Source of the DNA: Fibrobacter succinogenes subsp. succinogenes S85
GTDB lineage: Bacteria; Fibrobacterota; Fibrobacteria; Fibrobacterales; Fibrobacteraceae
Length of the DNA: 32,000 bases
Direction: 5' to 3'
NCBI RefSeq assembly: GCF_000146505.1
Contig: NC_017448.1
Coordinates: 2,190,001 to 2,222,000, forward strand
The first letter of the stretch is position 1, and every line of letters starts with the position of its first letter. Below are positions 8,059-20,292 of the stretch, piece after piece. The position numbers and the translations under genes were made by a program. The notes under the pieces are model-generated. The model was not told the DNA's origin and ran no database searches. It saw only the letters and a list, made by a program, of their open reading frames with translations.

Positions 8059-8523
8059 ATGATGAAGGAACAACTCTTCAACTTGATTAAAAAACATCAA
8101 TACAATATCTCCATCTATACCGAAGATATTTTTGAGAGACGTTGTCAGGAAGAAATTATCCGCAGTGACGAGGATAAGAGTTCCTTCGTGTATATAGAGT
8201 TTGATTTCGAGTCCATCAATATCACTCTCGCCAACGAGAGCAACTCCCACCAGTTCTGGAGCATTTTCTTAGAGACGCTTTCACAGAACAAGCGCGGAAA
8301 CGATGTTCTCGGATTCCTTGAACACGAAAGCGGAATCGGACTATTGCTGCTGGACTCCAAGCTCGACGGCTGGACACGCCTTGTCGGTCGCTTCATCCGT
8401 ACCGCAAGCAAGCACAATTTTGAAATCATGAACCTTGTGCTTGAAAAAAACGTGAAGCCCATCGTCTACCCGAGCTGCATCCAGGATATCCAGGCACAGC
8501 AGGCCGCAAAGCAGGAACAATGA
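8059..8523 (+). CDS. Hypothetical protein, 154 aa
   Basis: Divergent from the DUF4954-like gene with only a 28-bp gap. Its stop overlaps the GT4 start (ATGA at 8520). There is only weak by-eye resemblance to a degenerate GGDEF-type fold (RGNDVLGFLEHESGIGLLLLD). Confidence 0.5.
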   Translation: MMKEQLFNLIKKHQYNISIYTEDIFERRCQEEIIRSDEDKSSFVYIEFDFESINITLANESNSHQFWSIFLETLSQNKRGNDVLGFLEHESGIGLLLLDSKLDGWTRLVGRFIRTASKHNFEIMNLVLEKNVKPIVYPSCIQDIQAQQAAKQEQ

Positions 8524-9728
8524 AAGTCCTCGTCATAGGCTCCGTCTATCCAAGATTTCAAGAAGATGCCGAAGTTCCCTGGCTGCGCACTTCCATCGCG
8601 CATTTGAAAAAAGCGGGCGTTGAAATCCAGGTACTCGCTCCTGCATACAAAGGACTCAAGAGCCACGACATTGACGGAACGCACGTGAACCGCTTCCGTT
8701 ACGCACCCGCAAGCTGGGAAATCCTCACGCACGAAGAAGGCGCCCCAAGCAAGATGGCCTCCAAGCCATGGTTGCAACTGCTCGCCATCCCTTACATCAT
8801 CAACGGATTTTTTCAGTGCATCAGGATTTGCCGCAAGTGGCGCCCTGACGTGATTCACGCGCACTGGCCGTTTCCGCACGCTTACATTGCACTCGGTGCG
8901 GCCAAGCTTTTTAAAATTCCGCTCGTACTGAACTTCCATGGTGCAGAACTCCTGCTCATCCGCAAAAAGAAGTGGGTCAAACCGCTCCTGAAATTTGCCA
9001 TCGGACAGGCTCAGGCGATCTTTGCAAACTCAAGTTTCACCGCCGGAAAAATCAAGGCGCTCCGCAACGTAGACGTTGAATGGAGTCCGTACGGAACTAC
9101 GCTAGAGACGAGTAGGTTGCAAGGTGAGTGTCGCAACGGCAAATTCAAAATTCTCTTTGTCGGGCGGCACATCGAACGCAAGGGAATCTGCTACCTCATC
9201 GAAGCCGCGAAATACCTGCCCAGAGACAAGTTCGAAATCCGCATTGTCGGTGTCGGTGACTTGACCGAACAGCTTAAGCAGCAAGCAGCTTTATTAGACG
9301 AGAGACAAAAGACGAAAGACGAGAGAGGGGCCGAAATCATTTTCACGGGAAAGCTTTCTCCTGAAGATCTCGCAAACGAATACCGCACGGCAAACGTCTT
9401 TACGCTACCGGCCATCGTTGATCACAAGGGTGACACCGAAGGACTCGGGGTCGTGCTCATCGAAGCGATGGAACTTGGACTGCCGATTGTTGCAAGCAAT
9501 GTCGGTGGCATCCCGGATGTCGTTGTCAATGGAGAGTCCGGAATTCTCGTTCCTGAAAAAGACCCTGTTGCACTTGCCAATGCCTTCAAGCGTCTCGAAG
9601 CAGACCCGACATTGATTCAAAAACTCCTTGCCGGCGCCCGCAAACGCATTGACAAATGCTTCACCTGGGACGGCATCATCGAACGCCAGGTTGAAGTGTA
9701 CAAGAAAGTAGTAGACAGTAGGAAGTAG
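8520..9728 (+). CDS. Glycosyltransferase family 4 (GT-B)
   Basis: C-terminal signature EGLGVVLIEAMELGLPIVASNVGGIPDVVVNGESGILVP. The N-terminal domain (VLAPAY.., HAHWPFPH) is typical of GT4. Confidence 0.85.
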   Translation: MKVLVIGSVYPRFQEDAEVPWLRTSIAHLKKAGVEIQVLAPAYKGLKSHDIDGTHVNRFRYAPASWEILTHEEGAPSKMASKPWLQLLAIPYIINGFFQCIRICRKWRPDVIHAHWPFPHAYIALGAAKLFKIPLVLNFHGAELLLIRKKKWVKPLLKFAIGQAQAIFANSSFTAGKIKALRNVDVEWSPYGTTLETSRLQGECRNGKFKILFVGRHIERKGICYLIEAAKYLPRDKFEIRIVGVGDLTEQLKQQAALLDERQKTKDERGAEIIFTGKLSPEDLANEYRTANVFTLPAIVDHKGDTEGLGVVLIEAMELGLPIVASNVGGIPDVVVNGESGILVPEKDPVALANAFKRLEADPTLIQKLLAGARKRIDKCFTWDGIIERQVEVYKKVVDSRK

Positions 9729-9746
9729 GAAGTAGGAAGTTAGAAG
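9719..9746 (+). repeat. (TAGGAAG)x3 + TTAGAAG heptamer array
   Basis: Read directly. The GT4 stop codon (9726-9728) is the second TAG. TAGs at 9719, 9726 and 9733 fall in all three frames. Confidence 0.9.
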
Positions 9747-9766
9747 TAAAAACAGATAAAAAATAA

Positions 9767-11455: not shown

Positions 11456-11833
11456 TTATTTAATAGAGGTGGTTGATTGTTTTTCCTTCTTGCCTGCAGG
11501 CGTTTCGTTCATGTCGCAAGCACCCTGGAAGATGGCTCCTTCGTTGATGACGAGCTGTTCTGCCTTTACATTACCGATTATTTTGGCATTGTCCTGTAGA
11601 ATGAGCTTTCCGTTGCATTCTACATTTCCCTTGATAGCACCTGCAAGAATAGCGGTGCCACACTTGACATCGCCTTCTATAATTGCAAGCTTTTCGAGAA
11701 TCAGTTCTCCGTCAATAAAGACGTTTCCATAAACCTTTCCGGCGATGCGCAAATCCGTTTTTCCGGCAATATCTCCATTGACCTGGACACTTCTACCAAC
11801 TTGAGTAAATTCCTGTTCGTTTTTGCTCGCCAT
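11456..11833 (-). CDS. Bactofilin (polymer-forming cytoskeletal protein)
   Basis: 125 aa of repetitive beta-helix pattern (G.V.G.I......I.G.V.GNV) with a short Lys/Glu-rich tail. SD is AAAGGGGAAAATT-ATG. Confidence 0.85.
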   Translation of the reverse strand: MASKNEQEFTQVGRSVQVNGDIAGKTDLRIAGKVYGNVFIDGELILEKLAIIEGDVKCGTAILAGAIKGNVECNGKLILQDNAKIIGNVKAEQLVINEGAIFQGACDMNETPAGKKEKQSTTSIK

Positions 11834-11862
11834 AATTTTCCCCTTTCTTATTTGGCTATCTT

Positions 11863-12663
11863 CTAGTATGTAAATATCGTTTCCGGATCTTGCGGCAGGT
11901 TATTCTTGGTAATGGAATAATGCAAGTGCGGACCGCTCGTGTTGCCAGTGTCGCCTACATAACCGATAACATCGCCTTTTGTGACATTCGCTCCTCTTCG
12001 GGTTCTGATACTCTTGAGGTGTGAATAAGACGATTTGTAACCGTTCTGGTGGTCGATGACAATAGTGTTTCCAAGGTCGCCGCTATTACCTGCAAATGTG
12101 ACCTTGCCGCTACCCGATGCAAAGACCGGGTTCCCCTTGCGTGCAGAAATGTCAATTCCCAGGTGCTTGTTTTCATACGAGAATTTTTTGCTGATGATAC
12201 CTACGGCCGGGATGACGTTCGGGATGCGTTCCAAGCGAATTTTTTCGTCGGTCGTAAGCCAGTTGTGTATCCCTTCGAAGTCGATTTGGTTTTTCGCTGA
12301 AGGCACGTGCGCAAATCGGTTGCGTTCTATAATGCTGTTAATCTTGTTGGAGTCGTTTTCAAGGAATGTCTCGAAAATATTCTGGATTCGGTTTTCCATG
12401 ATCCACAGTGAATCAAGTCTCGAGAAGAACTCTTCGTAGTTCGCGTTCTGCTTCACGAGCTGTGCGTTGTGTACGCGCATCTTTTCATAATTTGCGAGAG
12501 TCTTGTTGATTTTTGCAATGTGGACTATGAATAAAATAAGTATGATGGCAACAAGGACAAGCCCGACATTGAACAAGACAAATTGCTTGTTCGAAATGCG
12601 GAACTTTCTTGCACCGGTCGTGTTTTCCGGAATAATCTGGATGGTGTAATACTTACGACTCAC
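11863..12663 (-). CDS. M23 (LytM-type) peptidase with N-terminal TM helix and coiled coil
   Basis: HLGIDISA, GNTIVIDHQNGYKSSYSHL, GYVGDTGNTSGPHLHYSI. GTG start lies 10 nt after the parB stop. Confidence 0.85.
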   Translation of the reverse strand: MSRKYYTIQIIPENTTGARKFRISNKQFVLFNVGLVLVAIILILFIVHIAKINKTLANYEKMRVHNAQLVKQNANYEEFFSRLDSLWIMENRIQNIFETFLENDSNKINSIIERNRFAHVPSAKNQIDFEGIHNWLTTDEKIRLERIPNVIPAVGIISKKFSYENKHLGIDISARKGNPVFASGSGKVTFAGNSGDLGNTIVIDHQNGYKSSYSHLKSIRTRRGANVTKGDVIGYVGDTGNTSGPHLHYSITKNNLPQDPETIFTY

Positions 12664-12673
12664 GATTTTACCG

Positions 12674-13672
12674 TTAGCGATTGTCCATTATTTCCTGGAT
12701 TCTTGTCAGGTCGTCCATGGAATAATAGTTGATGACGATGGTGCCTCTAGTCTGGTCCTTGGCGTTCGGGTTGAGTGCGACCTTTGTACCGAAGAATGTT
12801 TCGAGCCTGTTTTCGAAGTTCTTGAGGTCAGCGCTGAGTTCCGGCTTCGGTCTCGGTTCGCTGCCGTGGACTTCCGGCATTTCATCTTCTTCGGGAGTAG
12901 ATGCGCCATTTTCCGGTTCAGCTTCTTTCGTCTCTCCCTCGTCTCTCGTCTGGGCGAACGGATCTTCACCGCGGGCAATAGCTTCGATCTGGCGAACGTT
13001 CAAGCCTTCTTCGATGACGCGCTTTGCGAGAGCTTCCGGGTCTGCAATTTTTTCACTGCAGAGAGCACGGGCGGCACCGCCTGCAAGTTTGCCTTCTTGG
13101 ATCCAGGCTTGCACCTGGTTCGGGAGTTTCAAGAGACGAAGTGCGTTCGTGATGGCAGAACGGGACTTGCCGACCGTCTTGGCCAAGTCGTCGTGCGTGT
13201 AGTTGTGGTTGTCGATCAACTGCTGGTAGGATTGTGCCACTTCAATCGGGTTCAAGTCCACGCGCTGGATGTTCTCGATGAGAGCCCATTCGCTCATGGT
13301 CTTGTCGTCAAGATTGTCGTAAACCTGAGCCTTGATGGTTCTGCAGTTGGCAAGTTTCGATGCACGAGTACGGCGTTCACCGCTGATGATTTGATAACGG
13401 TCGCCCACCTTGCGGACAGCAATCGGCTGGATAAGGCCGTGCTTTTCGATGGTTTCAGCAAGTTCGACAAGTTCATCGTCGTCGAAGAACTTGCGCGGCT
13501 GGAACGGGTTCGGGTCAATCAAGTCAATGTTGATTTCGACGATTTTCTGATTGTCCGTATTTACGTTTTCAGTAGCTCCGGTATTGTTGATGGCGTTATC
13601 GACAGAGTTGCCGAGAACATCGTGTGCCTTAAAAATTGCAGAGAGACCGCGACCAAGTGCTTGTTTACCCAT
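12674..13672 (-). CDS. parB: Chromosome partitioning protein ParB/Spo0J
   Basis: GRGLSAIF box, IQPIAVRK...YQIISGERRTRASKLA (ParB box/CTPase motif), an HTH region, and a C-terminal dimerisation domain after an acidic linker. Confidence 0.95.
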   Translation of the reverse strand: MGKQALGRGLSAIFKAHDVLGNSVDNAINNTGATENVNTDNQKIVEINIDLIDPNPFQPRKFFDDDELVELAETIEKHGLIQPIAVRKVGDRYQIISGERRTRASKLANCRTIKAQVYDNLDDKTMSEWALIENIQRVDLNPIEVAQSYQQLIDNHNYTHDDLAKTVGKSRSAITNALRLLKLPNQVQAWIQEGKLAGGAARALCSEKIADPEALAKRVIEEGLNVRQIEAIARGEDPFAQTRDEGETKEAEPENGASTPEEDEMPEVHGSEPRPKPELSADLKNFENRLETFFGTKVALNPNAKDQTRGTIVINYYSMDDLTRIQEIMDNR

Positions 13673-13686
13673 TTTTTAGTTCTCAG

Positions 13687-13786
13687 TTAGTAGTTAATAG
13701 TTGCTAGAATATTTAGTTGGCAGAACTTAGACCGCTTCGCTCTTAGAACTTAGAAAAAAATACTAAGCTCTAAGCTCTAAGTTCTA
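13687..13786. repeat. TAG/CTA-word palindromic spacer between parA and parB
   Basis: Plus strand: TTAGTAG TTAATAG TTGCTAG (13687-13707) ... CTTAGAACTTAG-A7-TA-CTAAGCT CTAAGCT CTAAGTT CTA (13763-13786). TAGAACTTAG (13744-13753) is complementary to CTAAGTTCTA (13777-13786). The parA stop (13784-13786) is the first TAG of the minus-strand array. Confidence 0.8.
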
Positions 13787-14569
13787 TTTTTCCTTATTCA
13801 GTATTTCTTCGGCGAGCTTCATGTACGACTGCGAGCCTGTGCTCTGTACATCGTAAAGGATGACCGGCTTGCCATGGGACGGGGCTTCGGAGAGTTTCAC
13901 GTTGCGCGGGATCATCGTCTGGAAAACGGTGTCGCTCAAGTTCTCGCGAACTTCTTCAGCGACCTGCTTTGAAAGGCTCAGACGGGAATCGTACATCGTG
14001 AGGAGGGCGCCTTCGATTTTCAAGTTGGAGTTCAGATTCTTCTGGACTTCACGGATGGTCTTGAAAAGTTCAGTCATACCTTGCAATGCATAATATTCAC
14101 ACTGCACCGGAATGAGCACGCTTGTTGCGGCCGTCAGTGTATTAATTGTGAGTAAGTTCAGGCTCGGAGGAGCGTCGATGATGATAAAATCGAACTCCTG
14201 CTTGAGAACGTTCATCACGCGTTCGAGTCTGCGTTCGCGGCTCATGGCGTTGACAAGTTCAATTTCCATGACGGCAAGGTCCGGTCCAGAAGTGATGACC
14301 TTGAGGTATTCAAGCGACGTGTCCAAGATGGCGGGCTTGATATTTTCGAGCGTGAGATTGTCCGGATTACCAGCCATGTCCAGAATTTCGTGGATATCCA
14401 TGTCCTGGGATTCCATGAAACCGAGACCTTGAGAGGCATTACCCTGCGGGTCCATGTCTAAAAGAAGTGTCTTCTTTTCAAGGGCTGCAAAACTCGCGGC
14501 CAAGTTCACGGCCGTAGTAGTTTTACCGACGCCACCTTTTTGGTTGCATATGGCGATAATTTTACTCAT
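13784..14569 (-). CDS. parA: Chromosome partitioning ATPase ParA/Soj
   Basis: Deviant Walker A (MSKIIAICNQKGGVGKTTTAVNLA), DMDPQGNAS, IIIDAPPSL. Confidence 0.95.
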   Translation of the reverse strand: MSKIIAICNQKGGVGKTTTAVNLAASFAALEKKTLLLDMDPQGNASQGLGFMESQDMDIHEILDMAGNPDNLTLENIKPAILDTSLEYLKVITSGPDLAVMEIELVNAMSRERRLERVMNVLKQEFDFIIIDAPPSLNLLTINTLTAATSVLIPVQCEYYALQGMTELFKTIREVQKNLNSNLKIEGALLTMYDSRLSLSKQVAEEVRENLSDTVFQTMIPRNVKLSEAPSHGKPVILYDVQSTGSQSYMKLAEEILNKEK

Positions 14570-15215
14570 TATTACCTCGGGTGACTAGAGCGTACACCTG
14601 TTCTTCTTCTGGAAGTTCATACTTCTGGATATGCACTTTCGGATCGTTTTCCAAATGGGCAATATTGTTGAAGCTCTTCAGCGTGACAAAAACACCACCA
14701 CGCTTGAGACCTGCCTGGGCGCGTTCCCAGTCGTTTTCAAAAGTCGAGAGGGCGCGGCAGCTGATAAAATCAAGGTCGGTGAGGCCGGAAGTTTCAAAGC
14801 GCTTGCCGACGACGGTCAAGTTGTCCAAGTGGAGCTTTTCCTTGACCATCTGCATAAAGTTCACGCGCATGTGGCGTGGTTCGACAGCATAGAACTGCAC
14901 GTTCGGCATGGCAATTGCAAGCGGAAAAACTGGGCAACCTGCTCCAGCACCCATATCTGCCCAGCGTACAGTGTCATCCTGAGTGGACAGTGTTTTTCCT
15001 AAAAACACAAAGGGAACGAGAGAGTCGGCAATGTGCCTGCTTAAAAACTTTTCAGAATCCTTTGCCGAAATCAAGTTACCATATTCCTTGGTGTCCACCA
15101 CCAAGTCTGCAAACTGGTAAAGCTTGTCGAGAGTCTCTTCGGACAGCTGCACGCCATGTCCCGAAAGGAACTGGTTCAAAAGATCTTGCTGCGCTTTGTT
15201 AGTTCTATAACTCAA
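14562..15215 (-). CDS. rsmG: 16S rRNA (guanine527-N7)-methyltransferase RsmG (GidB)
   Basis: SAM-binding DMGAGAGCPVFPLAI. Typical length and typical position immediately upstream of parA (8-nt overlap). Apparent TTG start at 15213-15215. Confidence 0.9.
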   Translation of the reverse strand: MSYRTNKAQQDLLNQFLSGHGVQLSEETLDKLYQFADLVVDTKEYGNLISAKDSEKFLSRHIADSLVPFVFLGKTLSTQDDTVRWADMGAGAGCPVFPLAIAMPNVQFYAVEPRHMRVNFMQMVKEKLHLDNLTVVGKRFETSGLTDLDFISCRALSTFENDWERAQAGLKRGGVFVTLKSFNNIAHLENDPKVHIQKYELPEEEQVYALVTRGNNE

Positions 15216-15242: not shown

Positions 15243-15322
15243 TGTTTGGACACTTCGTGTCCAACATGCTCATGCTCGGTCATGCCGGTGTACAAGCACC
15301 CCGTCGCGACACTCGCTATCGC
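15243..15322. repeat. Three-hairpin element, copy 1 (GGACAC hairpin - linker - ACAAG-loop hairpin - small hairpin)
   Basis: TGTTTGGACAC-TTC-GTGTCCAACA (15243-15266), linker ..GCTCGGTCAT.., GGTGT-ACAA-GCACC (15287-15300), GCGA-CAC-TCGC. The same order and similar spacing are seen at 15895-15972. Confidence 0.7.
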
Positions 15323-15407
15323 ATGTTTGCTCCTTCGGAGCCAACTTGCTGCACCTCGGAAATGTCGGTAAACAAGTTTCCCGCCGCTTCCTCGGTTTGC
15401 AATTGTT
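15323..15407 (+). repeat. 85-bp direct repeat, copy A
   Basis: 84/85 identical to 15814-15898. Begins with the hairpin TGTTTGCTCC-TTC-GGAGCCAAC. Its last 4 nt (TGTT) are also the first 4 nt of parS at 15404. Confidence 0.9.
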
Positions 15408-15419
15408 TCACGTGGAACA
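15404..15419. other. parS: parS centromere-like site, TGTTTCACGTGGAACA
   Basis: 15/16 match to the palindromic consensus TGTTTCACGTGAAACA, and identical to the reverse complement of the Bacillus subtilis-type TGTTCCACGTGAAACA. Lies 190 bp upstream of rsmG-parAB. Confidence 0.85.
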
Positions 15420-15544: not shown

Positions 15545-15795
15545 TGTTAAGCCGAATGCTGCGAAATGTATGCTTGCATACATTTCATAGCTGAGGCGCC
15601 AGTTTCGCGCTTGCGCAAATGTTGTTAAGGCGAGAGTTGCGGAAAGCATGCTTGCATGCTTTCCATAACCGAGCCGACCAACATAGCGCTTGCGCAGAAC
15701 TTGTTAAGGTGAGAGTCGCAAAAATAAGCTTGCTTATTTTTATGACCGAACCGCTGAGTTCGCGCTTGCGCAAAAATTGTTAAGGTGAGAGTCGC
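15545..15795 (+). repeat. Tandem array, about 3.3 units of 76-79 bp, each with two CTTG-loop hairpins
   Basis: Unit landmarks TGTTAAG at 15545/15623/15702/15778. Long-hairpin loops (CTTG) at 15573, 15651 and 15729 are exactly 78 nt apart. The conserved short hairpin GCG-CTTG-CGC is at 15607, 15686 and 15762. The GAGAGTYGC motif is at 15632, 15711 and 15787. Confidence 0.85.
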
Positions 15796-15813
15796 TTTGT
15801 TTTTGTTTGGACT

Positions 15814-15898
15814 ATGTTTGCTCCTTCGGAGCCAACTTGCTGCACCTCGGAAATGTCGGTAAACAAGTTTCCCGCCGCTTTCTCGGTTTGCAATTGTT
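15814..15898 (+). repeat. 85-bp direct repeat, copy B
   Basis: One mismatch versus 15323-15407 (C/T at repeat position 68). Preceded by a half palindrome TGTTTGGACTAT (15804-15815) and followed by the GGACAC hairpin at 15898-15916. Confidence 0.9.
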
Positions 15899-15972
15899 AG
15901 GACACTTTGTGTCCTACCTCTTGGGGCTCAGTAATGCCCATACAAGTATGGGCGCTACATTCGCCCTGTAGA
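15895..15972. repeat. Three-hairpin element, copy 2
   Basis: TAGGACAC-TTT-GTGTCCTA (15898-15916), linker ..GCTCAGTAAT.., GCCCATA-CAAG-TATGGGC (15936-15953), CTACA-TTCGCCC-TGTAG. Same architecture as 15243-15322. Confidence 0.7.
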
Positions 15973-15988
15973 GGTTTCACGTGAAACA
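15973..15988. other. parS: parS site, GGTTTCACGTGAAACA
   Basis: 15/16 match to the consensus; only the outermost base differs. It forms the 5' end of a 105-nt structured module (15973-16077). Confidence 0.85.
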
Positions 15989-15995
15989 CAGCCGA

Positions 15996-16077
15996 GGTCA
16001 GAAAGCGAAAAAATGCTTGCATTTTTTTATTTGCTGACCGATGGGTGTTGGACTATGGCTTTGCTATAGTCCAAACA
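15996..16077 (+). repeat. Long A/T hairpin (CTTG loop) plus TGTTGGAC...GTCCAAACA palindrome
   Basis: GGTCAG-AAAGCG-AAAAAATG-CTTG-CATTTTTTT-ATTTG-CTGACC (15996-16039), then TGTTGGACTATGG-CTTT-GCTATAGTCCAAACA (16046-16077). Confidence 0.8.
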
Positions 16078-16078
16078 T

Positions 16079-16106
16079 ATAAAAAATCCTCCCGATTCTG
16101 GGAGGA
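16079..16106 (-). terminator. Intrinsic terminator of the 16132-16851 lipoprotein gene
   Basis: On the minus strand, the hairpin TCCTCCC-AGAATC-GGGAGGA is followed by T6. Confidence 0.75.
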
Positions 16107-16131
16107 TGTTCAAGAAGTTTAAAGCTAAATG

Positions 16132-16851
16132 TTAGCGGTATAAAAAGAAGTAAGTTCCGGTCTTGCGGTCTTCCCCATCTTCCGTATGTGTATCGGTCAG
16201 TGTGACCATCCCGTCTTTAACACCAGTTTCGTAACGATTCCAGGTGTACCAAATGTCGCCACGATGTTCTTTCCTATAGCAGGTATTTTTATCGTTCTCG
16301 TCCATGACAATGATTTCATTATAATCAATTCTGAAAATGGTATCTGTTTTCATGACGTAAGTGATGGTAGATTCGCCGTCTTCGTCGGTGGATGTGGTGG
16401 CCAAGGAATCCCCGTCGAAATAGATGGTCATTGTATTGCTTACATCGCCGACTGTTTCAGTTATTGTCCAAATGTTGCCTTCGTGTACAACTGTAGGTTC
16501 TTGGGTTCTTACAGTGGTCTGGTATGTCCATTCACCATTGCGGAGGTTTGCTTCGTAAGCACTGTCGAGGTGTGTGCCAGTCCAGTATGCTTTATAAATG
16601 TAGATGGATTTGCCTCTATTACTAGCGCTACCCTTGTCCATGTAAAGACTGTCTGGTACTAAACCATGATAATCCTTGTCGTAGATAGAAAGAGTAGATC
16701 TCTTGTAATCGAATACTGTTTGGAGACAGTTGGTGTAGGTATATCCTACAGGATTATTGGTGGGTGAATTATTGACAGGTGCTGTGCTTGATGAATCATC
16801 GCTGCAGGCAACAAATAGTGCTGCTGCTAAAAGAAAAATTTTAGAGTTCAT
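16132..16851 (-). CDS. Hypothetical lipoprotein
   Basis: Lipobox LAAALFVAC followed by a Ser/Asp-rich linker. 239 aa, beta-rich. Confidence 0.7.
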   Translation of the reverse strand: MNSKIFLLAAALFVACSDDSSSTAPVNNSPTNNPVGYTYTNCLQTVFDYKRSTLSIYDKDYHGLVPDSLYMDKGSASNRGKSIYIYKAYWTGTHLDSAYEANLRNGEWTYQTTVRTQEPTVVHEGNIWTITETVGDVSNTMTIYFDGDSLATTSTDEDGESTITYVMKTDTIFRIDYNEIIVMDENDKNTCYRKEHRGDIWYTWNRYETGVKDGMVTLTDTHTEDGEDRKTGTYFFLYR

Positions 16852-17476: not shown

Positions 17477-17685
17477 GCAAAATATATCCACTTCAAATCT
17501 TTTGTGGTGGATGTATATCCTATCCCTCCTAAGAATATTACCTGGAAAGGGTTGTATTTGTTTTCGTAGATGTTGCTTAGGTCTATAGAAAAAGTGGAAT
17601 CCTGCACTGGATTTTCCAATACAGATATTTTTGCAAAAGCAAAAGATATAGAGATGAGGAATATGGTAAGAGTCTTTTTAATCAT
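17473..17685 (-). CDS. Small secreted protein, 70 aa (possibly the N-terminal part of a split gene)
   Basis: MIKKTLTIFLISISFAFA signal peptide. The ATG overlaps the stop of the VOC gene (ATGA at 17682-17685). The longer track ORF (to 17907) overlaps the VOC gene and is rejected. Confidence 0.5.
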   Translation of the reverse strand: MIKKTLTIFLISISFAFAKISVLENPVQDSTFSIDLSNIYENKYNPFQVIFLGGIGYTSTTKDLKWIYFA

Positions 17686-18086
17686 ATAGTAATCTCTATT
17701 CTGTTGCCTTCGGGGTCGAGGACGACACTTTCGTAATACCCGTCGCCGGTAGTTCGAGGTTGACCTACAATAGGAGTCCCTTCGGAAGACATTTGTTGGG
17801 TCAGGTGGTCGACCTCTTCTTTTGAACCGACGGAAAAGGAAAGATGGGTAAATCCGAGATGTTCCACGTGAAACATCTCGACAGTCCCAACATTTCGTTC
17901 GACACATATATCAGGGCGGTGCATGACTTCTAGGCGGGCACCATCATCGAAAGTGATGAATCGGCTGGTGAATTGTTTTGCTGGGTTATGGTAAATCGGG
18001 TGGACTACCCCGCCGAAATATTTCCGGTAGAACTCGCATACCTTGTCGATATCTTTAACCCAGATGGCAATATGTTCAATCTTCAT
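17682..18086 (-). CDS. VOC family protein (glyoxalase/bleomycin-resistance/dioxygenase fold)
   Basis: MKIEHIAIWVKDIDKVCEFY...HLSFSV...YYESVVLDPEGNRIEI. Typical size of 134 aa. Confidence 0.8.
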   Translation of the reverse strand: MKIEHIAIWVKDIDKVCEFYRKYFGGVVHPIYHNPAKQFTSRFITFDDGARLEVMHRPDICVERNVGTVEMFHVEHLGFTHLSFSVGSKEEVDHLTQQMSSEGTPIVGQPRTTGDGYYESVVLDPEGNRIEITI

Positions 18087-18143: not shown

Positions 18144-18159
18144 TGTTTCACGTGAAACA
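18144..18159. other. parS: parS site, TGTTTCACGTGAAACA (perfect consensus)
   Basis: 16/16 palindrome, located in the divergent intergenic region between the VOC gene and the 18298 gene. Confidence 0.9.
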
Positions 18160-18166
18160 CAATCAA

Positions 18167-18265
18167 GAATACCAAGCAAAAACATACTCGTATGTTTTTA
18201 TTTGGTATTCGCAGAGTGTAGGACTACGATGTAATCGTAGTCCCAACACATGAGCCGAGAGTCGC
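18167..18265 (+). repeat. Second copy of the long A/T hairpin + GGAC palindrome module, followed by GAGAGTCGC
   Basis: GAATACCA-AGC-AAAAACATA-CTCG-TATGTTTTT-AT-TTGGTATTC (18167-18210), TGTAGGACTACGAT-GTA-ATCGTAGTCCCAACA (18217-18248), GAGAGTCGC (18257-18265). Confidence 0.8.
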
Positions 18266-18297
18266 AGATTTCTATTATATATTAGTATATTTATCAC

Positions 18298-19874: not shown

Positions 19875-19890
19875 ATAGTTCTTTTGTTCT

Positions 19891-19905
19891 GCCCCACCTT
19901 GGGGC
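19891..19905 (+). terminator. Possible terminator hairpin GCCCC-ACCTT-GGGGC
   Basis: Lies 17 nt after the 19874 stop and is followed by a T-rich stretch (GTATTCTTT). A T6 tract also occurs at 19942-19947. Confidence 0.45.
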
Positions 19906-20109
19906 GTATTCTTTAGACGCCGAGTTCCCCGCGAGCTTGGCTTTTTTCATATGGAACAATTATAGCGCTCTAAATTTTAATACAACATATATTATGTAGT
20001 TGATAAACTGACTTAATTTTATTAACTATTGAATTTATAAATCAAAAAAAACTGTAAAAATTCATTTTTATTGTTTATAGATAATGAACAATTTTTCTCA
20101 CAATAACTA

Positions 20110-20125
20110 TGTTTCACGTGGAACA
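20110..20125. other. parS: parS site, TGTTTCACGTGGAACA
   Basis: Same 16-mer as at 15404. Lies in an AT-rich 418-bp intergenic region, 11 nt upstream of a perfect DnaA box. Confidence 0.85.
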
Positions 20126-20136
20126 ATTTCAGTTTT

Positions 20137-20145
20137 TGTGGATAA
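20137..20145. promoter_or_regulatory. DnaA box, TGTGGATAA (perfect E. coli-type consensus, reverse orientation)
   Basis: Exact 9-mer. Whether this organism uses this consensus is not known from the window alone. Confidence 0.45.
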
Positions 20146-20292
20146 TATGTAAAATTGTGAGATAAAAGGTTGATTCGCGTTGAATATTTGATAACATTAT
20201 ATCAACATATATTTTTACGCTTGTAGACGGAAAATTTAGTCAGGCTTTCATTTATTCGGTTTACATATATTATATTTCTTTGTGGAGGCTTT

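Follow-up and report, generated by a model that had tools for sequence, protein, structure and literature searches.

The stretch of DNA analysed here, a 32,000-nucleotide (nt) window of the Fibrobacter succinogenes subsp. succinogenes S85 genome (contig NC_017448.1, positions 2,190,001 to 2,222,000), carries on its minus strand the genes rsmG/gidB (14562-15215), parA (13784-14569) and parB (12674-13672), and beyond them the genes of an M23 peptidase and of a bactofilin. Five parS-like sites, against a chance expectation of 0.07, lie right of rsmG, at 15404, 15973, 17860, 18144 and 20110. Judging from this combination of rsmG-parA-parB and five parS sites, the window is an origin-proximal Fibrobacter region. 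Two of the sites stand at the head of modules X (15973-16077) and Y (18144-18248), in which parS runs directly into DNA with two further hairpins. These hairpin units, their attachment to parS and their recurrence in Fibrobacter are the subject of the present analysis.

Anatomy and folding of the units

Each unit is 76-91 nt in length. It opens with a long irregular hairpin, H, and closes with a short palindrome, P (GTNGG...CC[AC]AAC); in X and Y, the 16-nt parS comes before it. Modules X and Y each fold as three consecutive hairpins without spacers, formed by parS, H and P, respectively. H spans approximately 58 nt, and its basal helix is formed with the terminal bases of the palindrome before it (ACA in the case of parS) and with the GT head of P. 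The middle helix of H is Watson-Crick paired in T1 and T2, and in types T3-T8 both of its strands have tandem G.A/A.G mismatches within a 5'-CGAG-3' context. H also possesses a conserved asymmetric internal loop, GC[A/G] opposite [C/T]AT, and an inner stem of 7-9 bp with a loop that is mostly CTTG. P has the form GT[A/T/C]GG-stem-loop-stem-CC[A/C]AAC(A), its commonest head being GTAG and its loop often GAA. Eight types of H can be distinguished, of which X carries T1 and Y carries T2. A K-turn (kink turn) was considered for the CGAG...CGAG internal loop and rejected on inspection of the alignment, in which the tandem G.A motif has Watson-Crick pairs on both sides.

X and Y had been singled out in a first-pass annotation made from the sequence alone, and the features described for them are all present: parS at the head, a hairpin at offset 23-66 with a CTTG loop in X and a CTCG loop in Y, and a 32-nt palindrome at offset 73-104. 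Likewise, the outer stems are replaced with compensation (GGTCAG/CTGACC in X, GAATACCA/TGGTATTC in Y), and the A/T-rich inner stem is common to both. The exact 105-nt geometry holds for these two modules and is not a fixed constant, as the range of unit lengths shows. The two-copy picture is real and incomplete. Searches with BLAST and a profile hidden Markov model (HMM) place six complete units in the window, those of X and Y, two minus-strand units under parS 15404 and two minus-strand units under parS 15973 (Table 1), and the spacer of approximately 900 nt upstream of rsmG is made almost wholly of units. Apart from these six, an array of H-only units and a truncated unit start, no further units were found by the same searches in the remainder of the 32 kb. 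A 29-nt H-like remnant within a GT4 glycosyltransferase gene also lies in the window.

A repeat search of the window, which also detected both long hairpins, aligned X and Y without gaps over 82 nt at 73% identity, and the two lie only 2.2 kb apart. Such proximity and similarity could be taken for a single local duplication of approximately 105 bp that has since drifted, the outcome that the first-pass annotation had set against a functional unit. This explanation has practically no chance of being right and is clearly contradicted by the recurrence of units across Fibrobacter species. Homologous units at parS number in the hundreds and come from rumen metagenomes as well as from over 40 species of Fibrobacter. 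Furthermore, X and Y are different conserved types, each closer to its orthologues elsewhere than to the other, and the differences between them are compensatory, not random.

The folding of both modules is far stronger than that of shuffled sequences, with z-scores for X and Y of -6.5 and -7.8 as RNA and of -5.9 and -8.8 as DNA; 0 of 200 shuffles folded as well. Compensatory change is seen in 13 of the 15 pairs called by RNAalifold. Under the structure specified by us, 84.4% of the cells are paired, compared with 63.0% in column shuffles and 34-51% with slid partners. Simultaneously, cells with a double change number 212 versus 63 in the shuffles, and the covariation score is 0.545 versus 0.196. 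G-U wobble pairs are rare, without enrichment on the forward strand; therefore, both strands keep the ability to fold. CTTG and C-GAA-G are unusually stable DNA mini-loops, these loops and tandem G.A pairs are hallmarks of stable DNA hairpins, and CUUG is a stable RNA tetraloop.

The strong covariation and the CUUG loop would also suit structured RNAs, that is, small RNAs, elements of 5'- or 3'-untranslated regions, or terminators and stabilisers, as repetitive extragenic palindromic (REP) elements are in mRNAs, lying near parS only because parS sites are intergenic. The forward strand folds better by a mean of 2.1 kcal/mol (98 versus 28 units), a weak indication since the copies are not independent. 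With a sigma-70-like promoter match at 15480-15451 (-), the rsmG-parAB leader would include parS 15404 together with both of its units, and that array may be transcribed in passing. Taken as a whole, an RNA function is nevertheless very improbable. Besides the scarcity of G-U pairs and their even distribution between the strands, no Rfam family matches the units even at E = 5 (in Rfam 15, only tRNA-Met matched at the gathering threshold, and at the E limit of 5 three chance-level matches fell far below their gathering scores). The arrays show no preference in orientation, their 3' ends facing gene starts in 77 cases and gene ends in 59. This even spread, along with the 91 units to the right of their parS and the 105 to the left, also speaks against a replication signal. 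The zero spacing to parS on both strands leaves promoters no space, and neither a U-tract nor a T-run comes after P. Relative to the coding sequence, units are sense in one gene and antisense in another, and the base-precise anchoring at parS described below is left unexplained.

Anchoring at parS across Fibrobacter

In a ParB-based scan with one genome per species, 55 loci were collected, all from Fibrobacter or Fibrobacteraceae, with ParB 62-96% identical. The comparison sequences are mostly metagenome-assembled genomes, sampled over the origin-proximal 10-20 kb of each genome, and a wider set for the profile HMM comprises 115 Fibrobacter sequences (1.34 Mb). The ParB-selected loci and the window together contain 196 units in 138 arrays of 1-5 units, and 119 of the 138 arrays start directly at parS. 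In the wider set, with 470 unit matches, the final bases of a parS mark the start of 299 of 354 arrays, and 4 are cut by contig ends. Within an array the units follow one another head to tail; one or both flanks of a parS may be occupied, and the orientation is outward in every case. That parS is palindromic and presents the same end on both strands would explain why units occur around it in both orientations. No internal parS is found in the arrays, and in 0 of 196 cases does a parS follow the 3' end of a unit. The rule of a parS head has one main exception, the H-only array of the window, which is preceded by ...GTTGAGAAAC and is kept in many relatives at a distance of approximately 200 nt from the rsmG-proximal parS.

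The association with parS extends to the distribution of the units along the chromosome. In the ParB-selected loci and the window, all units lie within the parS-containing zone, and none is present in the approximately 12 kb per locus on the other side. Among the ParB-selected loci, units occur at 43 of the 48 that bear parS, and H reaches a density of 1.23/kb within 400 nt of parS versus 0.03/kb elsewhere, a 41-fold difference. Of 110 P-like hairpins in 0.9 Mb, 104 belong to arrays, and the remaining 6 also lie within the parS-containing zone. A metagenome scan with P alone, covering 241 million records, gave 74 matches in 59 rumen contigs, of which 63 lie in units or arrays headed by parS with at most one mismatch; most of the others have a parS with two mismatches or lie at a contig edge. 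The possibility that P is a genome-wide REP sequence was rejected on this confinement of P-like hairpins to parS arrays, within the approximately 1.3 Mb sampled around the origin.

The join between parS and unit is precise to the base. Position 16 of parS depends on the type of the following unit: T4 and T6 come with C, T3 and T8 with G or A, and all other types with A. The last base of P shows the same type dependence when another unit comes next. Therefore, the join falls after ...AAC, the next base being supplied by the unit itself. In the structural alignment, the partner of parS position 16 (pair 16-76) is a base close to the 3' end of H that covaries with it, the pair being A-T in 29 cases and C-G in 8. 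The parS at 15973 starts with G because this is the complement of the C that T6 places at the junction on the other side. The unit-proximal half-site reads GTGAAAC in 106 of 112 cases, versus 195 of 270 half-sites without a unit (p = 2e-7). A direct repeat, AAAC(A), is present at both ends of the unit, for which target duplication and microhomology are equally possible.

Such base-precise abutment, together with the strict dyad symmetry around parS, would also be compatible with arrays that serve as a host-selected accessory of the centromere, the hairpins extruding as cruciforms or folding when single-stranded and shaping events beside parS. The accessory might limit or direct the sliding of ParB-CTP clamps, help the loading of SMC, or insulate the partition complex from transcription. 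The basal helix of H includes the last three bases of parS, the base at parS position 16 changes together with the unit, and P hairpins are exclusive to parS arrays. In addition, the eight H types are kept genus-wide at low copy number with compensated stems, the loops (mostly CTTG, and C-GAA-G in P) are unusually stable DNA mini-loops, and tandem G.A mismatches lie in a 5'-CGAG-3' context. Despite these points, the proposal is rather unlikely. Of 190 parS sites, 91, or about half, carried at least one unit, and the remainder were unit-less, including the conserved parS beside the DnaA box and the parS within a gene of the VOC/glyoxalase family. The assignment of unit types to parS sites is not conserved, even in close relatives, and the types are interchangeable. 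Related H units lie in frame within the GT4 glycosyltransferase gene far from parS, and in the literature searched (parS with cruciform, parS with REP) neither an experiment nor a known property of ParB or SMC connects them to hairpins. The first-pass annotation had also proposed a structure that cooperates with the loading of ParB; the data do not require it, and it would be a minority possibility. The more specific claim is quite unlikely. By this claim, the arrays would belong to the functional centromere of Fibrobacter: hairpins folding from the duplex or from transient single strands beside parS, with the final bases of parS drawn into the basal helix of H, would set the boundaries or direction of ParB-CTP sliding or recruit SMC, and the family would be maintained, or was domesticated, for this purpose.

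A parS beside DnaA boxes never has a unit. In every relative, as in the window, the last parS of the cluster is unit-less, and it is flanked by TGTGGATAA- or TGTGAATAA-like boxes. The DnaA box adjoining it in the window is the sole perfect one there, and the intergenic AT-rich region at 19875-20292 also contains the near-boxes TTGATAAAC and TTGATAACA. On the basis of the parS and the DnaA box, this region is probably oriC; no dnaA gene is present in the window. On the other side of the cluster, the operon order is rsmG-parA-parB-M23 peptidase-bactofilin (11456-15215, -), and the position of the bactofilin immediately 3' of parAB is reminiscent of the link between bactofilin and ParABS in Myxococcus.

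Turnover between relatives and the proposed movement

Each unit type is 88-97% identical across species, and the types are shuffled between orthologous parS sites, even in close relatives. In the case of T1, a copy in comparison locus L019 is 96% identical over 85 nt, and the ParB of that locus is only 69% identical. In T3, the outer parts are invariant and the inner stem is altered with compensation. The comparison at parS 15973 displays a unit that is present in one genome and missing in another. In L014 (ParB 95% identical), the orthologous parS is followed at once by TAAAAAAATCC..., and T1 is missing; in the window, the 89-nt T1 sits exactly between GAAACA and TATAAAAAATCC..., bracketed by AAACA direct repeats. 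The two states were judged on the raw sequences, as a MAFFT alignment showed the insertion poorly. An intrinsic terminator (ATCCTCCCAGAATCGGGAGGAT followed by TTTTTT; 16086-16107, -), which serves the open reading frame (ORF) at 16132-16851, adjoins the P end of module X, and for this reason the empty site of L014 reads parS and then terminator.

Units are also found within coding sequences, where the frame is kept open. In L053 (ParB 96% identical), L003 and L009, T1 lies instead beside the conserved parS inside the VOC/glyoxalase gene, which corresponds to the unit-less gene at 17682-18086 (-) in the window. In L053 (L053:5802-6281), the frame is open and encodes 159 amino acids versus 134 in the window, the 25 extra residues being placed directly ahead of the FHVEH that parS encodes. 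The frame in L003 and L009 runs through T1 and parS into T6, and the C-terminal half of the gene is gone, a state consistent with a deletion between two parS sites. The sequence GTCCCAACA at 17884-17892, within the VOC gene of the window, resembles the 3' end of P and may be the scar of a former unit.

In the GT4 glycosyltransferase gene (window 8520-9728, +), the linker between the domains is a hot spot in which H-like units lie in frame, far from any parS. The encoded protein has 402 amino acids in the window, 432 in L053 (L053:13981-15279) and 477 in L005 (L005:14372-15805). The linker contains one H-like unit in L053 and a different H-like unit in L005, the insertions amounting to +30 and +39 residues, and in L005 a further 37 residues (translation ...LCHPERNEVKSKDP...) stem from the insertion of a repeat of another type. 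On the evidence of the direct repeats AACGG[C/A]AAATT, the remnant in the window was left by a deletion between them. The sequence GAGTAGG stands directly 5' of the H-like unit within the GT4 gene, and AGTAGGA heptamer repeats, with approximately four copies each, occur in the window at 80-105 and at 9717-9748, the latter at the 3' end of this gene.

Two differences between relatives were noted around parS itself. In L033 and L034, which are very close relatives compared as reverse-complemented loci, the same T2 lies on opposite sides of the orthologous parS (L033:11342, +; L034:6818, -), and the order of T3 and T8 is swapped between L049 and L033. Such swaps of side and order around a palindromic parS suggest inversions or independent insertions. 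A second palindromic repeat type with ...GTCATCC / GGAATGAC feet (e.g., CCGGAATGAC...GAGGAATGAC) brackets some H-like units approximately 1 kb past the last parS, and it may represent a further anchor palindrome for the H family.

The insertions in the VOC and GT4 genes and the gain and loss of units at parS lead therefore to a mobile family of palindromes, similar to the Rickettsia palindromic elements (RPE), for which parS is a pre-existing landing site. Considering this turnover and in-frame insertion along with the anatomy, parS anchoring and covariation of the units, the most probable explanation, at approximately 60%, is that X and Y are members of a Fibrobacter-specific, non-coding, two-hairpin mobile repeat family, and that parS is their anchor or target, not their cargo. 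The first-pass annotation had raised the idea of a mobile or duplicating element that carries parS. Its first half is borne out by types recurring at different parS sites, by the precise presence or absence of units and by the in-frame gene copies. The second half fails: travel of parS with the unit was rejected, since the arrays contain no internal parS, no unit ends in one, the VOC-gene parS has a unit in some genomes and none in others, and about half of all parS sites are unit-less.

In the movement proposed for the family, units would be copied and pasted to new places, with a strong preference for landing immediately 3' of the parS palindrome end ...GTGAAAC. With this end present on both strands, they would gather on either or both sides of parS and point outward. 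The foot of P (TGT...[AC]AAC) mimics the parS end and would thereby recreate the landing site, so that arrays could grow head to tail; this parS-like foot is proposed as the reason for both the head-to-tail growth and the restriction of P to parS arrays. Two routes of movement appear about equally likely. In the first, a trans-acting single-strand nuclease or transposase of the HUH type would recognise the folded hairpin and nick after AAC. In the second, template switching or gene conversion without a transposase would take place between parS copies bridged by ParB, the 16-nt parS serving for the outward switch and a microhomology, the AAAC with which P ends, for the return. Because the second route would switch between parS copies, it would account for the restriction to parS and would need no dedicated enzyme. 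Any gain for the host centromere would be secondary.

Several points weigh against a mobile family. No transposase, HUH or recombinase Pfam family is present among the 65 representative ORFs (ORF clusters) of the parS zones, and the genome paper of F. succinogenes S85 gives only two IS4-like and two weak IS91-like genes (PMC3079729, Text S8), the IS91-like pair (Fisuc_2286 and Fisuc_3107) being the only lead to a trans-acting HUH transposase. The H types are conserved across species far beyond what is expected of a low-copy selfish element, and compensatory changes in their stems are kept; this combination suggests purifying selection, which could act at the level of the host. The empty-site comparison at parS 15973 shares only approximately 11 nt of flank past the junction and is thus suggestive, not clean. 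Many of the loci belong to metagenome-assembled genomes, in which repeats can be misassembled. The genome-wide copy number, approximately a hundred, is an extrapolation from sampled origin-proximal loci (0.03/kb, if the genome measures approximately 3.8 Mb).

Chromosomal parS sites are treated as bare 16-bp loading sites for ParB. In Fibrobacter, a whole genus has about half of its parS joined base for base to outward-pointing hairpin arrays. If the family is selfish, it would be a clear case of a bacterial repeat family homing to the centromere and a natural system in which to ask what makes parS a landing site: the single-strand hairpin, ParB, or the ParB-clustered copies of parS. If the host makes use of it, a structural DNA component would be added to the biology of ParABS, and if the arrays are truly part of the centromere, they would be a bacterial counterpart of the centromere-specific repeats of eukaryotes. 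Under either reading, the arrays alter the outermost bases of parS and reshuffle the origin region, and through their in-frame insertions they contribute variation to the genome and the proteins of an important degrader of fibre in the rumen.

Table 1. Positions of the parS sites, hairpin units and related repeats. Coordinates are those of the window unless preceded by the name of a comparison locus (L).
Feature	Position	Strand	Remarks
parS	15404-15419		TGTTTCACGTGGAACA; upstream of rsmG/gidB-parA-parB; heads a two-unit minus-strand array
parS	15973-15988		GGTTTCACGTGAAACA, with G at position 1 as its one mismatch; two arrays diverge from it, with units on both sides
parS	17860-17875		Within the VOC/glyoxalase gene, codons 70-75 (MFHVEH); unit-less in the window genome
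parS	18144-18159		TGTTTCACGTGAAACA, perfect; head of module Y
parS	20110-20125		Unit-less; in an AT-rich region; adjoins the perfect DnaA box 20137-20145
Unit T5	15243-15323	-	Second in the array of parS 15404; ends 27 nt before the rsmG start codon
Unit T3	15324-15403	-	Headed by parS 15404; near-identical to 15815-15894
H-only tandem units, T4/T5-like	15545-15797	+	About 3.3 units of about 77 nt each; a GCGCTTGCGC mini-hairpin replaces P
Unit T3	15815-15894	-	Second in the minus-strand array of parS 15973; adjoins P of T6 with no parS between
Unit T6	15895-15972	-	Headed by parS 15973, on the opposite side from T1
Unit T1 (module X minus parS)	15989-16077	+	H 15989-16046, P 16046-16077; orthologous parS in L014 has no unit
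Unit T2 (module Y minus parS)	18160-18248	+	97% identical in L003; missing at the orthologous parS of L053
Truncated start of a T4-type unit	18249-18275	+	CATGAGCCGAGAGTCGCAG...; a full T4 unit is present here in L003
H-like unit remnant, 29 nt	9117-9145	+	TTGCAAGGTGAGTGTCGCAACGGCAAATT; inside the GT4 glycosyltransferase gene; whole unit in frame in L053
Second palindromic repeat type	L001:2271-2320, L004:2329-2385, L006:3255-3308, L084:1031-1076 and flanks		Also in coding insertions

Comparison with known repeat and partition systems

REP sequences and the bacterial interspersed mosaic elements (BIMEs) built from them are defined by an imperfect palindrome of 20-40 nt with a conserved 5' GT(A/G)G head. 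P fits this definition as a short imperfect palindrome with a GTAG-type head, and the units resemble the REP/BIME systems, whose transposases are termed RAYT, in their mosaic layout of palindrome and linker, their extragenic position and the preservation of structure by compensatory change. However, P is not dispersed and occurs only in parS-headed arrays, the units follow one another head to tail instead of forming inverted pairs, and the main element is the 58-nt irregular hairpin H with its eight conserved types. In addition, no RAYT/Y1_Tnp gene is present among the 65 ORF-cluster representatives of the parS zones.

In the case of RPE, the likeness is one of behaviour. Those are palindromic repeats of approximately 100 nt that can lie in frame within genes at tolerant linkers, as the units do in the VOC gene (+25 amino acids) and the GT4 gene (+30 and +39); given the different phylum, a relation in sequence is not expected. 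In contrast to RPE, most copies in Fibrobacter are intergenic and anchored at parS by their head, and to our knowledge RPE do not anchor at a specific protein-binding site.

The palindrome-associated transposable elements (PATE) of the IS200/IS605 group and the miniature elements of the IS91/IS801 group resemble the units in adjoining a short specific sequence and in carrying hairpins near their ends. They also share the lack of an obvious target duplication, unless the AAAC(A) repeat at the ends of the units is one. IS91/IS801 elements are bounded by the same tetranucleotide that serves as the target (PMC3189936), and their topology matches the order of parS...AAC, unit...AAC seen here, with a join after each AAC. 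Nevertheless, significant differences exist between the HUH elements and the units. The junction here is GAAAC, with the join at its end, and not GAAC or CAAG; the specificity covers all 16 nt of the palindrome; and the hairpins H and P do not resemble each other. The lagging-strand orientation bias of HUH elements is not seen: 91 units lie to the right of parS versus 105 to the left, probably within one replichore, and both sides of one parS are often filled. Identity with the GAAC target of IS91 was rejected, as the proximal half-site is GAAAC in 95% of cases, so that only the topology matches.

Integron attC sites were considered and rejected as well. The motif order of P is reversed relative to attC (GTTGGAC...GTCCAAC versus RYYYAAC...GTTRRRY), there are no ORF cassettes between the units, and no integrase was found among the ORFs of the parS zones. 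Compared with sopC of F and parC of R1, the arrays share the presence of tandem direct repeats at a partition site. Every repeat of sopC and R1 parC binds the partition protein, whereas only the head of the Fibrobacter array is parS (0 of 196 units is followed by parS), and a sopC-like tandem centromere was rejected for the same lack of internal parS.

A blastn search with a 263-nt array gave no match in plasmids and phages, and nothing relevant was found in the literature on Fibrobacter parS, Fibrobacter repeats, parS with cruciform or parS with REP. No earlier description of a bacterial centromere linked to a repeat family was found, and the distinguishing feature of the Fibrobacter units is their base-precise anchoring at chromosomal parS.

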